DNA of 15,240 nt from Candidatus Heimdallarchaeota archaeon (GTDB lineage: Archaea > Asgardarchaeota > Heimdallarchaeia > Heimdallarchaeales > Heimdallarchaeaceae): NCBI GenBank assembly GCA_019057375.1, contig DXJF01000025.1:1-15240 (forward strand), in the 5' to 3' direction. This document shows positions 11,069-14,621 of the stretch, piece by piece (position 1 is the first letter of the stretch; each line of letters opens with the position of its first letter). A program made the position numbers and the translations under genes. The notes below the pieces were generated by a model, which saw nothing but the letters and a program-made list of their open reading frames with translations, did not search any database and had not been told where the DNA came from.

Positions 11069-12850
11069 TCAAAAAAATGCTCTTATTTTTTCTTTGAGAA
11101 TTTTTACTGAACTATGTCTCTCAAAACTGAATTCTTGCGAAAACCTTGTTCCTCTTGGATCTAGAAGTATGTGAACAGCTCTGTCCCCTTTATTGCGAAT
11201 AGCTCTTCCAAAACTCTGAGCAAGTCTTTGAACCATAGGAATAACCACAGTAAATTCCTTAGCAATTTTAGATCCAAATTGATTTAGTAGGTCATCGTGA
11301 ATTATTTGATTTTCCTGAGAGGGAGGTGGAAAGGGTAAAGTACTAACAATAATTCCTTTTATCAAACTTCTTCCATCTACTGAAAATTCTACTCCTTCAC
11401 TTATTTTTCCACCTGTTACACAGAGTATCAGTTTTTTTTCTTCAGAACTAGCCACAATTGCTTGGAGAGTTGTTATATCTAAATCACTTGTTTCAGCAAT
11501 ATCTGCATTTAAAACTCCAACATTCACTAGATCCTCCATGTATTTGTAACTAGGGACAAATACTAGAGTATGACCATCTATTGCTTCGAAGATATTCTGA
11601 ATTGTGCTTGAAATCAAAACAAAATATTCGTGGGTTCTATTGTCATATCTCCCATTTAATTTTTGATTTACAAGTACGTAATATTTGCTTTCAATGTCCT
11701 CCTTTGGAGAAAAAACTCTTAACATTTTTGAATTAGATAACTGGAAAATTTGTTGGAATGATCTTAAAGGTTCAAAACTGCCAGAAATCAAAACTAATCT
11801 CTTTGTCTCTCTAAATTTCCTGAGAGTATCTGAAGATTGAATGTTTACTATGGATAATTTGTGTCCATCAGATAATAAAATCTTATCTTGAGCGGAAAGC
11901 AGAAAGTGATAAACTAAATATGCATAGAATGCTGGGGGACTATTTCTGCTTAACTGTGTCTGAAGGAGAGAAAATAACTCGTCCTCTAAGGATTTTAGTT
12001 TATACTCATCAAAGCTGTTATTTATAACATTCTGGTTTTCAATTGCCTCGAGAATCTCATTATATATAGGATGGGGAAGTTCTTTAGCTGCATTTTCTAT
12101 AAATGATTTTGAGATAGACTGATTGAATGGCTTGTGGAGGTTATGAGCTTCATCAATCCCAATTAGTGTTTTCTCTAAACGGGATCCTATACTATAGAAG
12201 AACCTTGTAAATAAAGCAGTATTCTCTAAAAAAGGGTAGGATGTGATTATTACATCTGCTTTCTGCATAAGGAAATATGAGAAAAAATAAGGACAATAAT
12301 TGTCAGAATTCAGACTTGTAAGTATATCATCTTTCGAGATTACGTTGGAAAAAGATTCATACAAACGTTTTACTGATTCTAAAATGTCATCTGTTGTTGC
12401 TCTTTGTGTTTTCGCTTTCAGAGTACATCTTGTTAAGTTACAAATGTGAGTATAAAGCTCACTTGGATAATCTTTTCTCGCTTTCAGGCATAATTCGTTC
12501 TTACCAAGGAAAGGTACAAATATTGGAAAACTATTAAAATGTGGTTCAAGTGTTTCCCAATGTTTTACAATCTGGTTAAATATGTTGGAAAGTTCTCGTA
12601 GAAATACGTTGATCTGTGCTTTAGTTCTAACATAAACAACTATTTTCTCATCAGGTTTTTTCAACGCTAATAAAGAAGTAAGAAGCGCCGCGGTTTTCCC
12701 AACCCCTATCTGTGAAGAAATAAGCAGAGGTTGAGTTGAAGATATGATGGATTGGATGATCTTCTTTTGAGGAGCTTTCATTGTTGTATACGGAAAAAGA
12801 ATTTTAGCAATCTCCCAACGTTCTTCTGTTTTTTCATCAATTTGGAACAA
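11069..12850 (-). CDS. xpd: XPD/Rad3/DinG-family Fe-S SF2 5'-3' DNA helicase with intact motifs
   Basis: FPY..Q (Q motif), SQIGVGKT (Walker A), VRTKAQ (Ia), four Cys at 121/137/142/186 including CPYF (Fe-S domain), DEAH 233-236, SGS (III), GGKISEGVEF (V), QSFGRAIR (VI) and LDPR. Direction of unwinding is inferred from the family. Confidence 0.9.
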   Translation of the reverse strand: MFQIDEKTEERWEIAKILFPYTTMKAPQKKIIQSIISSTQPLLISSQIGVGKTAALLTSLLALKKPDEKIVVYVRTKAQINVFLRELSNIFNQIVKHWETLEPHFNSFPIFVPFLGKNELCLKARKDYPSELYTHICNLTRCTLKAKTQRATTDDILESVKRLYESFSNVISKDDILTSLNSDNYCPYFFSYFLMQKADVIITSYPFLENTALFTRFFYSIGSRLEKTLIGIDEAHNLHKPFNQSISKSFIENAAKELPHPIYNEILEAIENQNVINNSFDEYKLKSLEDELFSLLQTQLSRNSPPAFYAYLVYHFLLSAQDKILLSDGHKLSIVNIQSSDTLRKFRETKRLVLISGSFEPLRSFQQIFQLSNSKMLRVFSPKEDIESKYYVLVNQKLNGRYDNRTHEYFVLISSTIQNIFEAIDGHTLVFVPSYKYMEDLVNVGVLNADIAETSDLDITTLQAIVASSEEKKLILCVTGGKISEGVEFSVDGRSLIKGIIVSTLPFPPPSQENQIIHDDLLNQFGSKIAKEFTVVIPMVQRLAQSFGRAIRNKGDRAVHILLDPRGTRFSQEFSFERHSSVKILKEKIRAFF

Positions 12851-14621
12851 GATTTTTCCTTCCTTCTAGATTGTTAAAAATAACCTCTGCTTTCTCTTGT
12901 GGAAAGATTTCAACTAATTCTTTGATAGAGAGTTGGTTAACATGTTTTATGCTTTTTTTCTCTAATAAAGCAGAAATACTGATTGCTTCCTGATAAGAGC
13001 AATTTGTTAAGAACTGGATATAGATAGCTTTCTTATCATCCTCTTCTTGATGAGTAGATTCTTGTTCAAACTGAATTTTTCTTCCTTCTGATAATGATTT
13101 AGCTAGATTAACAAATGCCTTTGTACGAGAATTCATTTTTTCTTCAACATTTTTGTTAAAAATAACTTGTTGATTTTGAACAAGTTTCTGCTGAACTTTT
13201 TCATCTCTAATAATCTTACCTGCTGATTTTTCTCGATTTCGATATTTGTGGAAAACTCTTTCTTCTTGAGATCTATGAGTTATTAGAAAATAGATTTTTG
13301 ATTGATTATTTCTAGATTCCAAAAATGTTTCATACTTCGTGGGTGTATTGAAAAAGATTATTGAATCAGCTTTGGTTTTAACATAATGAGATGCAATTAT
13401 TACATCAATCTCACCAGAATCAAAAATCTGTTTAAGTTTTGTTCTTTCTTTTGATTGACTTTTAGGCAGAATTTTGCTTCTTAAACCAATCTCATCTAAG
13501 TATTTCGGTAGTTGTTTCAGAATACTTCTATGATTTGCAATTATGTAGAAATTCTTTAAGTTCAGCTTATTTTTCATCTGTGTGATTAGCTGTTCTATTC
13601 GTTTAAATTTAGGATGAATTGTTGATTTTGATAACTCAATTAGATTCTCATAAATTTCTTCAAAAACAGGTGTACGGGCAAAACTACTGATTTTTTTCTC
13701 TGTTTGATTCTTATTCTCTTTCTCCCTTTTTCTCAGTTTATCCATGTATTCTAAAGCAGATTTTGGACCTGAAGCTTCAACCAATTCCTTGATTGATATG
13801 AAATTGATGAGCTCAATAGCCTTTCTTATTAGTACTTGTTGTTCATCATAACCATATTGGTTTTTTAAACCTTGGACAAAATTTCTGAAATCCTTTCTTA
13901 CAGCTAGGGGTTTATCAACACCTTTAGTTTTGAGAAAGGTTTGATATTCTCTAATATATCGATTAACTTCAAGACAGAAGTTGTACATCTCCTTGTTTAT
14001 AGGTACAGTGATAACATCATCTCGAGCTGAAAAAGAATGACCATAAGGCAATATACTAGATTCAATATATTCTATTTTTGTAATAAGAAGATTTTCACAA
14101 ACTTCTATCAGGGAATCTGTATCTTGAAATATGTATCTTGTGAAACCAATGTTTCTGATCAAAACATCGTTTTTTCTGAAAATCTCCGTTAGCTGAACAG
14201 AAGCATGTTTTCCCTTTGAAAGGTGAGCATCAAAAAATAGCAAAACATGAAAATCCTTGGGGGAAACAACTTGCCTTAAAATATCATTTTTTAGTAACTG
14301 AGGAGTTAGAGCAATTACTTGAGAATCATCATACAGTCTCTTTCTTTTTTCTACAGATTGTGTAGATATAATATGATTCAGAATGCCATCTCGAAAACTC
14401 TCACTAATAGAACTAATTTGATCCCAAGTTTCAGTTTTATTAAGAACTAGAGCTACTTTCTTAAAATCATCCTTTTTATGAAAATAACTAATTAAAACTT
14501 CTAAAATAGTGTCGATAGTAAAGCTAACAGGATAGATGAGTAAAGTGTTATCCTTAACTACTGTTCCAAGTATCACCTGAGTATAAGTATCGATATTTTC
14601 ATTCATATAAGTCCCTTTCAT
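12837..14621 (-). CDS. Hef/FANCM (ERCC4-like helicase) homologue with inactivated helicase motifs, no nuclease domain and a diverged HhH-like C-terminus
   Basis: The Hef scaffold is recognisable: NTLLIYP, RKRLYDDSQVIALTPQLLKND, EVCENLLITKIEY, HPKF, FDSGEIDVIIAS and KIYFLITHRSQEE. Catalytic motifs are changed: PTGLGKT to PVSFTID, FDEAH to FFDAH, GLTAS to GFTRY, QRRGRTGR absent. ATG 14606 is an alternative start. Confidence 0.8.
   Translation of the reverse strand: MKGTYMNENIDTYTQVILGTVVKDNTLLIYPVSFTIDTILEVLISYFHKKDDFKKVALVLNKTETWDQISSISESFRDGILNHIISTQSVEKRKRLYDDSQVIALTPQLLKNDILRQVVSPKDFHVLLFFDAHLSKGKHASVQLTEIFRKNDVLIRNIGFTRYIFQDTDSLIEVCENLLITKIEYIESSILPYGHSFSARDDVITVPINKEMYNFCLEVNRYIREYQTFLKTKGVDKPLAVRKDFRNFVQGLKNQYGYDEQQVLIRKAIELINFISIKELVEASGPKSALEYMDKLRKREKENKNQTEKKISSFARTPVFEEIYENLIELSKSTIHPKFKRIEQLITQMKNKLNLKNFYIIANHRSILKQLPKYLDEIGLRSKILPKSQSKERTKLKQIFDSGEIDVIIASHYVKTKADSIIFFNTPTKYETFLESRNNQSKIYFLITHRSQEERVFHKYRNREKSAGKIIRDEKVQQKLVQNQQVIFNKNVEEKMNSRTKAFVNLAKSLSEGRKIQFEQESTHQEEDDKKAIYIQFLTNCSYQEAISISALLEKKSIKHVNQLSIKELVEIFPQEKAEVIFNNLEGRKNLVPN

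Follow-up and report, generated by a model that had tools for sequence, protein, structure and literature searches.

Two genes of the minus strand overlap in a 15,240-nucleotide (nt) stretch of archaeal DNA (contig DXJF01000025.1, assembly GCA_019057375.1), which is called the window here. The upstream gene encodes a pseudohelicase related to the archaeal helicase-nuclease Hef; the downstream gene encodes a divergent helicase of the XPD/Rad3 family with a predicted iron-sulphur (Fe-S) cluster domain. They were named hef2 and xpd2, and their proteins Hef2 and XPD2. The source metagenome-assembled genomes (MAGs) are titled Candidatus Heimdallarchaeota in the NCBI records. The sampled families of the window's class are labelled f1 to f7, where f1 is the window's own family, and the genera of f1 are labelled g1 to g5. 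The features of the locus are listed in Table 1.

Table 1. Positions of the hef2 and xpd2 genes and their features in the window.
Feature	Position	Strand	Description and basis
hef2 pseudohelicase gene	12837..14621	(-)	Open reading frame (ORF), ATG start, 594 amino acids (aa); Hef homology, model fold, orthologues, ratio of non-synonymous to synonymous substitution (dN/dS)
Degenerate motif I of Hef2	14511..14531	(-)	Residues 31-37, PVSFTID for PTGLGKT; Walker A lysine replaced by Ile36; alignments with 1wp9 and canonical Hefs
Degenerate motif II of Hef2	14223..14234	(-)	Residues 130-133, FDAH for DEAH; followed by family-specific KGKH
Degenerate motif VI of Hef2	13305..13319	(-)	Residues 435-439, ESRNN and a 5-residue deletion, for QRxGRTGR
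Long helix and four-helix tail of Hef2, putatively (HhH)2-like	12840..13202	(-)	Residues ~474-594; in the place of the ERCC4 domain of Hef, which is absent
Coupling junction	12837..12866	(-)	GAAGGAAGGAA at 12856-12866, xpd2 TTG at 12848-12850, hef2 TGA at 12837-12839
xpd2, divergent XPD/Rad3-family Fe-S helicase paralogue	11069..12850	(-)	ORF, TTG start, 593 aa; Pfam, 3crv alignment
XPD2 Walker A	12692..12706	(-)	G49-T53, GVGKT; G49, G51, and K52 invariant, T53 in >=90% of alignment rows
XPD2 Fe-S cluster domain (predicted)	12293..12490	(-)	C121, C137, C142, C186; align with the cluster cysteines of SaXPD (3crv)
XPD2 DEAH box	12143..12154	(-)	Residues 233-236; 3crv alignment and orthologue alignment
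XPD2 motif VI	11195..11218	(-)	Q545-R552, QSFGRAIR; 3crv alignment
Presumed promoter region of the operon, divergent intergenic	14622..14747	(-)	A+T-rich, TATA-like stretches; inferred only

The hef2 and xpd2 genes overlap by 14 nt in the window, and there is no intergenic space between them. Coordinates were taken for four loci, namely the window, L015, L017, and L035, and the overlap is 14 nt at each of them. The TTG start of xpd2, with the purine-rich GAAGGAAGGAA 5' of it, was present in 11 of the 15 orthologous junctions printed, which come from genera g1 and g2. In two further junctions of this set, the same TTG/GAAGGAAGGAA string lies 21-24 nt further in. The XPD2 N-terminus WEIAKILFPY, which depends on the TTG start, is kept at the protein level. 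The junction is not a matter of chance, because the TTG start and GAAGGAAGGAA recur in most of the orthologous junctions. Moreover, hef2 is followed by xpd2, co-directional and adjacent, at every g1 locus checked and also in g2; the pairing is thus not confined to this genome. There is good evidence that the two genes are probably one operon with translational coupling. Translation of hef2 may in fact begin at the second ATG (14606), the position where the orthologues start in the alignment.

Hef2 matched the NCBIfam Hef model NF010337 with an expect value (E) of 4e-27, covering model positions 19-560 of 781. Its score of 94.7 bits fails the curated whole-protein cut-off of 610 bits. In the PDB sequence search, the matches included the helicase domain of P. 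furiosus Hef (1wp9, 1e-15) and the FANCM translocase (9el5, 2e-7). Alignment with these structures and the canonical Hefs showed that motifs I, II, and VI are degenerate (Table 1), and that motif III is changed from TASP to TRY. No member of the Hef2 family has the Walker A sequence GxGKT, and the DEAH box is kept in a single orthologue, P0016. The ERCC4 nuclease domain (PF02732; GDxnERKxxxD) gave no Pfam match in Hef2, whereas the canonical Hef scores 100 bits. Hef2 is also about 200 residues shorter than Hef. Judged by its sequence, Hef2 is derived from the archaeal Hef helicase-nuclease, and has lost the motifs for ATP binding and hydrolysis together with the ERCC4 nuclease. With these losses, it is predicted to be able neither to translocate nor to cut.

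The AlphaFold2 model of Hef2, built from 13 sequences, has a mean predicted local distance difference test score (pLDDT) of 74.9. In it, two RecA-like lobes and a helical insertion are followed by a long helix and a tail of four helices. The Foldseek search with this model identified the Hef helicase 1wp9 as the top match (E 7e-24); FANCM (9el5, template modelling score 0.64-0.70) and then RIG-I-like helicases followed. Several positions outside the ATPase motifs are conserved in Hef2, such as the TPxLLxND segment, which aligns with TPQTIEND of Hef. The tail was also compared separately. It aligned in register with the HhH2 of the canonical Hef in hhalign, with a non-significant E of 0.13. The best Foldseek matches of a separate tail model were the (HhH)2 domains of NusA, ERCC1-XPF, and Hef, and they were weak (E 0.6-3). 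The GhG hairpins are absent from the tail. The tail might thus be (HhH)2-like.

A word-indexed search identified 30 Hef2 relatives of about 590 aa, with 41-93% identity. Where an organism name is attached to a relative, it is that of Heimdallarchaeota or an unclassified Asgard MAG in every case. When 1.8 billion representatives were searched with a profile, further and more remote members turned up; they span 512-650 aa, and none of them has Walker A or motif VI. The canonical Hefs ranked below them. Among 400 genomes of the phylum, strong matches were found in the window's family only, in five genera and down to 26% identity. The dN/dS of Hef2 was 0.115 and 0.070 against two close orthologues, and the value of XPD2 was comparable (0.085). 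An alignment of 21 Hef2 sequences contains 16 invariant and 35 near-invariant positions. By these sequence measures, purifying selection acts strongly on Hef2 (dN/dS about 0.1). Hef2 is not a pseudogene, and its orthologues are intact genes and not fragments. Seven MAGs of the genus lack both hef2 and xpd2. Five of these were checked; there, DegV and PAC2, which flank the pair elsewhere, are for the most part absent too, or else lie at a contig end. Because the flanks are missing too, the joint absence of the two genes is uninformative, and its reading as a co-loss was dropped.

XPD2 contains the Pfam domains DEAD_2 and Helicase_C_2, and aligned over its full length with the XPD of S. acidocaldarius (3crv, 7e-25). 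Comparison of 17 orthologues across the class showed that all four cluster cysteines are invariant, as are the residues G49, G51, K52, D233, E234, H236, Q545, G548, R549, and R552. The 3crv alignment also runs through the Arch-domain region, for which the Pfam HBB match is weak (E 0.014). By its sequence, XPD2 is a motif-complete XPD-family helicase with a predicted 4Fe-4S cluster domain between motifs I and II. The characterised members of this family unwind DNA in the 5'-3' direction. The TIGR00604 rad3 score of XPD2 is 122 bits, under the curated cut-off of 247, which archaeal control genomes including S. acidocaldarius miss too. Each of the seven families sampled from the class has XPD2 orthologues; the other families sampled from the phylum gave none (E <1e-30). 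One XPD2 orthologue (L016:7757-9557, assembly GCA_013166775) is broken into frames of 94 aa and 497 aa. The Logan assembly of the same contig has a single 605-aa XPD2 gene, so the split probably reflects a faulty assembly and not a pseudogene.

These results agree with a sequence-only reading of the window, which had proposed one operon with probable translational coupling, an upstream Hef-family pseudohelicase, and a downstream protein with every XPD motif and four Fe-S cysteines. It had described the downstream gene as an intact XPD helicase gene, and had proposed that the pseudohelicase might be a scaffold, loader, or regulator for XPD, possibly bridging it to a canonical Hef/XPF. XPD2 does belong to the XPD family; it is not the canonical XPD of the genome, a 694-aa protein encoded elsewhere (C144) that scores 330 bits against TIGR00604, compared with 122 bits for XPD2. 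The T. acidophilum XPD was likewise matched at 1e-55 by the canonical XPD, and at 1e-24 by XPD2. A canonical Hef is encoded in the same genome too (C47, 884 bits against NF010337), and one was kept in all five genomes searched for it (f1, f2, f5, and f7). Since a canonical Hef and a canonical XPD lie elsewhere in the genome, Hef2 and XPD2 are an extra paralogue pair, and Hef2 is not a partner for the only XPD of the cell.

Further paralogues were observed. The window's genome has a third XPD-like helicase, of 785 aa, which matches the PDB entry 9kqh, a 'DNA 5'-3' helicase', at 7.6e-165. This protein (L011:268-2625; region G000:C150:121667-123100) has a Cas4-like nuclease signature in residues 30-149 (PADLOC Cas4, 7.7e-7), N-terminal to the helicase; from its domain matches, it looks like a nuclease-helicase fusion. 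The window's family also has four RadA-family paralogues per genome (G000: C3, C102, C117, and C29). The most divergent of them (C29 in G000) falls short of the RadA cut-off, with about 217-230 bits. In g5 (G015:C1:265677-266618; L040:3623-4714), its gene comes immediately after that of the dead Hef2; in g2 and g4, the two are 13-35 kb apart.

In five of the seven families, XPD2 was found beside or near a gene of the Hef/XPF family. In f1, the partner has a dead helicase and no nuclease; it is co-directional and adjacent in g1 and g2, with the 14-nt overlap where read, and lies on the same replicon 24-30 kb apart in g4 and g5. In f2, the partner is a convergent gene at 0.5 kb, encoding a 790-aa protein with intact helicase motifs, degenerate nuclease motifs (ENQ, EWL), and a kept HhH2. 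Directly upstream of XPD2 in f3, with a 4-nt overlap or an 8-nt gap, there is a short XPF-type gene of 264-307 aa with ERCC4 and HhH, in which ERK is changed to ELK. In 12 of the 18 f5 genomes, a second, independent-looking pseudohelicase without Walker A, DEAH, and motif VI is convergent with XPD2 at <=1.2 kb. In f7, a motif-intact second Hef, with ERK changed to EYK, lies about 8.5 kb away. By our own estimate, the chance that two given genes lie <=30 kb apart in a 3.5-Mb genome is about 2% per independent lineage. A recurrent linkage of XPD2 with Hef/XPF genes, in differing orientations, is therefore unlikely to be accidental.

Other genes near XPD2 were also compared. A RadA paralogue is immediately upstream of XPD2 in part of f5, with a 1-nt overlap in the single pair inspected in detail (G064); PolB, a family-B DNA polymerase, is upstream in f4; and an RFC/Rad17-like AAA+ ATPase is upstream in f7. 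In g4 (L037:3086-4117, G014), the gene of a tail-less, 542-aa Hef2 shares 8 nt with the next gene, which encodes a P-loop ATPase of 343 aa weakly similar to the RadB/RFC/KaiC type. As associations only, these neighbours suggest fork restart or recombination rather than classical excision repair.

Phylogenetic trees of the helicase domain were reconstructed from 497 columns by a quick IQ-TREE search under a site-mixture model. In the tree, the f1 pseudohelicases are a single clade with a support of 99. A split with a support of 98 sets the f1 and f5 pseudohelicases and the Hef2 genes of f2 and f7 apart from most of the canonical Hefs. Three eukaryotic FANCM/Mph1-like sequences were grouped among the canonical Hefs and not with Hef2; a kinship of Hef2 with the eukaryotic FANCM was rejected on this ground.

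Taken together, these analyses make it moderately probable that Hef2 and XPD2 are a translationally coupled pair, in which Hef2 would serve as an ATPase-dead subunit binding branched DNA, or as a regulator, for XPD2 in fork or recombination repair. Both proteins would be made in fixed proportion from one transcript. Hef2 might then act as a non-catalytic, structure-specific DNA-binding or regulatory subunit, which recognises forks, flaps, or D-loops as the helicase domain of Hef and FANCM does. At forks that have stalled, or at recombination intermediates, it might target, load, or gate XPD2, acting beside the cell's canonical Hef and XPD. The parts of this proposal differ in strength. A functional coupling of hef2 and xpd2 is likely. 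For a physical complex of the two proteins, the case for and the case against are about evenly balanced. A fork or recombination intermediate as the substrate is a tentative suggestion. We infer the complex, the recognition of DNA structure, and the pathway alike.

Several points weigh against this proposal. The DegV, EamA, and PAC2 genes flanking the pair are syntenic within g1 too, so part of the hef2-xpd2 adjacency is inherited gene order, and adjacency alone is weak evidence. Hef2 is not adjacent to XPD2 in g3-g5 of f1, and the deep metagenomic relatives P0034, P0037, and P0038 have neither XPD2 nor RadA near Hef2; the data therefore do not demand an obligate heterodimer. XPD2 is present in f4, where no second Hef was detected with the queries used. 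A search for long fusions found no fused Hef2-XPD2 protein, which is weak evidence. The DNA binding of Hef2 is deduced only from the fold of the model and the conserved non-ATPase residues. A complex prediction from alignments, for Hef2 residues 190-594 (lobe 1 left out) and full-length XPD2, scored 0.00, which speaks neither for nor against binding. A single clade of all XPD2-linked Hef2 genes was not rejected, and its likelihood was slightly better (approximately unbiased test, p-AU 0.59; 30 rows, LG+G4), but the branches are long, the tree is a quick one, and the group was partly named after the first tree. Because of the long branches and the partly post hoc group, a single ancient Hef2 duplication is permitted and not proven.

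A stronger version of the proposal is that Hef2-XPD2 is a dedicated heteromeric machine dating to the ancestor of the class. Its Hef-fold subunit, without ATPase or nuclease, would serve both to recognise branched DNA and to load or gate an Fe-S helicase. We regard this version as unlikely. If it were true, the closest archaeal relatives of eukaryotes would already have had paralogue pairs of Hef/XPF and XPD with catalytically dead members, following the same logic as the later XPF-XPD and FANCM-FANCJ.

Four other explanations were considered. Hef2 might work mainly with the canonical Hef or another XPF-family protein, as a non-catalytic heterodimer partner through its (HhH)2-like tail, similar to ERCC1-XPF and FAAP24-FANCM; the adjacency to xpd2 would then reflect co-regulation or inherited order. 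The XPF family acts as functional dimers. The register of the tail with the Hef HhH2, the weak resemblance of its model to the HhH2 domains of ERCC1-XPF and Hef, the retention of a canonical Hef in every genome examined, and the detachment of Hef2 from XPD2 in g3-g5 would all be consistent with such a partnership. However, the GhG hairpins are lost, the tail similarity is non-significant (E 0.13; Foldseek E >0.5), and the Hef2 forms of g3 and g4 have no tail. The ERCC4 domain, a large part of the dimer interface in the XPF family, is also absent, and the overlapping xpd2 junction argues for matched synthesis of Hef2 and XPD2. A role of this kind therefore appears improbable.

A different substrate was also weighed, namely RNA or RNA-DNA hybrids (R-loops, G-quadruplexes, or structured RNA), on which the pair would act in place of replication forks, with Hef2 as an ATPase-less duplex-binding module like that of RIG-I or Dicer. 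After Hef and FANCM, the next structural matches of the Hef2 model are the MDA5, RIG-I, LGP2, and Dicer helicases. G-quadruplex staining is increased in Haloferax hef and rad3b mutants (PMC12873603), which would also fit. The sequence homology of Hef2 is specifically to Hef and FANCM, however, and the neighbours of XPD2 across the class are genes of DNA replication and recombination (RadA, PolB, RFC-like, and XPF). An RNA-directed function is thus quite unlikely.

It is very improbable that the pair serves as a defence against viruses or mobile elements, with a DinG/Csf4-like helicase at its core. XPD2 does match the PADLOC typeIV_DinG model PDLC01439 at 2e-53. Its score is 180 bits, compared with 330 for the canonical XPD and 412 for the third XPD-like helicase, so the match is generic. 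There is no PADLOC match for Hef2 and no Cas-family match among the window genes, and the genes are spread over the whole class in stable housekeeping synteny. The identification of XPD2 as a type IV CRISPR DinG/Csf4 protein was rejected on these grounds, namely the generic DinG match and the lack of a Cas-family match in the window. The idea that Hef2 is a decaying pseudogene without function, which the loss of every catalytic motif and of the nuclease domain might suggest, was rejected with hardly any doubt, because it is contradicted by the selection data (dN/dS 0.07-0.12, and the invariant and near-invariant positions of the 21 sequences), by intact frames of constant length across 26-93% identity, and by the confident Hef-like fold of the model.

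The proposed coupling of Hef2 with XPD2 was compared with known systems. Archaeal Hef is the best match of Hef2 in both sequence and structure. Their N-terminal 470 residues have the same fold and order (RecA lobe 1, helical insertion, RecA lobe 2), and the C-terminal helical tail of Hef2 stands at the position of the Hef HhH2. Unlike Hef, Hef2 has destroyed motifs I, II, III, and VI, no ERCC4 nuclease, and degenerate HhH hairpins, and it coexists with a true Hef. The archaeal XPDs of S. acidocaldarius (3crv) and T. acidophilum (4a15) share with XPD2 the Walker A, the DEAH box, motif VI, the four Fe-S cysteines, and a similar size; XPD2 differs from them as a divergent extra paralogue found in this class only.

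The eukaryotic XPF combines an inactive helicase-like domain with an active nuclease, and works with XPD/TFIIH in nucleotide excision repair. Like Hef2, XPF (ERCC4) is Hef-derived, has a superfamily 2 (SF2) domain without ATPase motifs, and is associated with an XPD-family helicase. In contrast to Hef2, which has no nuclease, XPF retains an active ERCC4 nuclease, and its HhH2 is functional and binds ERCC1. The sequence-only reading had regarded Hef2 as a parallel to, or a relative of, the step that gave XPF its dead helicase domain. The parallel remains; shared descent was not borne out, as the PDB sequence search with Hef2 (E up to 1) had no XPF chain among its matches, and the FANCM/Mph1-like sequences fell with the canonical Hefs. 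FANCM-FAAP24 and FANCJ also resemble the pair, as they join a Hef-family member with one dead activity to a fork-repair pathway that uses an XPD-family Fe-S helicase. The f2 Hef2 has the FANCM arrangement of intact helicase motifs, degenerate nuclease motifs, and a kept HhH2, whereas in the window's Hef2 the motor itself is dead.

In eukaryotes, one activity is dead in each of several proteins of the XPF family (XPF, FANCM, ERCC1, and FAAP24). The XPD-family helicases are several too (XPD, FANCJ, RTEL1, and DDX11), and the two families cooperate. A dead helicase domain of the Hef lineage is known from XPF, and dead nucleases are known from FANCM, ERCC1, and FAAP24. The usual description of archaea has a single Hef or XPF, and one or two XPDs. 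An archaeal Hef derivative that stands alone and lacks both activities differs from the known cases, and so does its coupling to a class-specific XPD paralogue. A full-text literature search found no published description of either, or of the Hef2-XPD2 pair. A 2026 Asgard review mentions XPF, XPD, and XPB-Bax1 merely as present in Asgard archaea. In the archaeal class nearest to eukaryotes, a lineage-specific XPD paralogue is repeatedly found with Hef/XPF paralogues that are intact, nuclease-degenerate, nuclease-only, or fully dead. They form a natural series for studying how a helicase-nuclease becomes a non-catalytic partner. The pair is also a small two-protein system for asking whether a dead SF2 fold directs an Fe-S helicase.

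Further observations were made at the XPD2 loci of other families. In f3, a protein of 549-551 aa is encoded upstream of the short-XPF/XPD2 pair (L114:535-2190, L115:5543-7192). It has a faint XPD/DEAD_2 similarity (about 30 bits), without Walker A, DEAH, or a PDB match, and might represent a dead XPD-like protein. A conserved protein of <=881 aa is encoded directly upstream of XPD2 in roughly half of the sampled f5 genomes, and more distantly in f6 (L058:7-2622, L059:73-1818, L098-L104, L120, L121). It has no Pfam or PDB match, and two f5 copies share 43% identity. The f5 genome G068 has short, nuclease-only XPF-like ORFs of 223-243 aa, which match Hef model positions 563-775 (L074 = G068:C65:342-881; L077 = G068:C303:5662-6303). 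Several other f5 genomes have Hef-like frames of 522 aa that match Hef2 over the helicase region. From these frames, Hef may be split in f5.

Two other genes were noted in the window itself. Positions 1114-2112 encode a protein of 332 aa whose C-terminal part is a 4Fe-4S dicluster domain; this ferredoxin domain was the only one seen. A partial plus-strand ORF, divergent from hef2, occupies positions 14748-15239.

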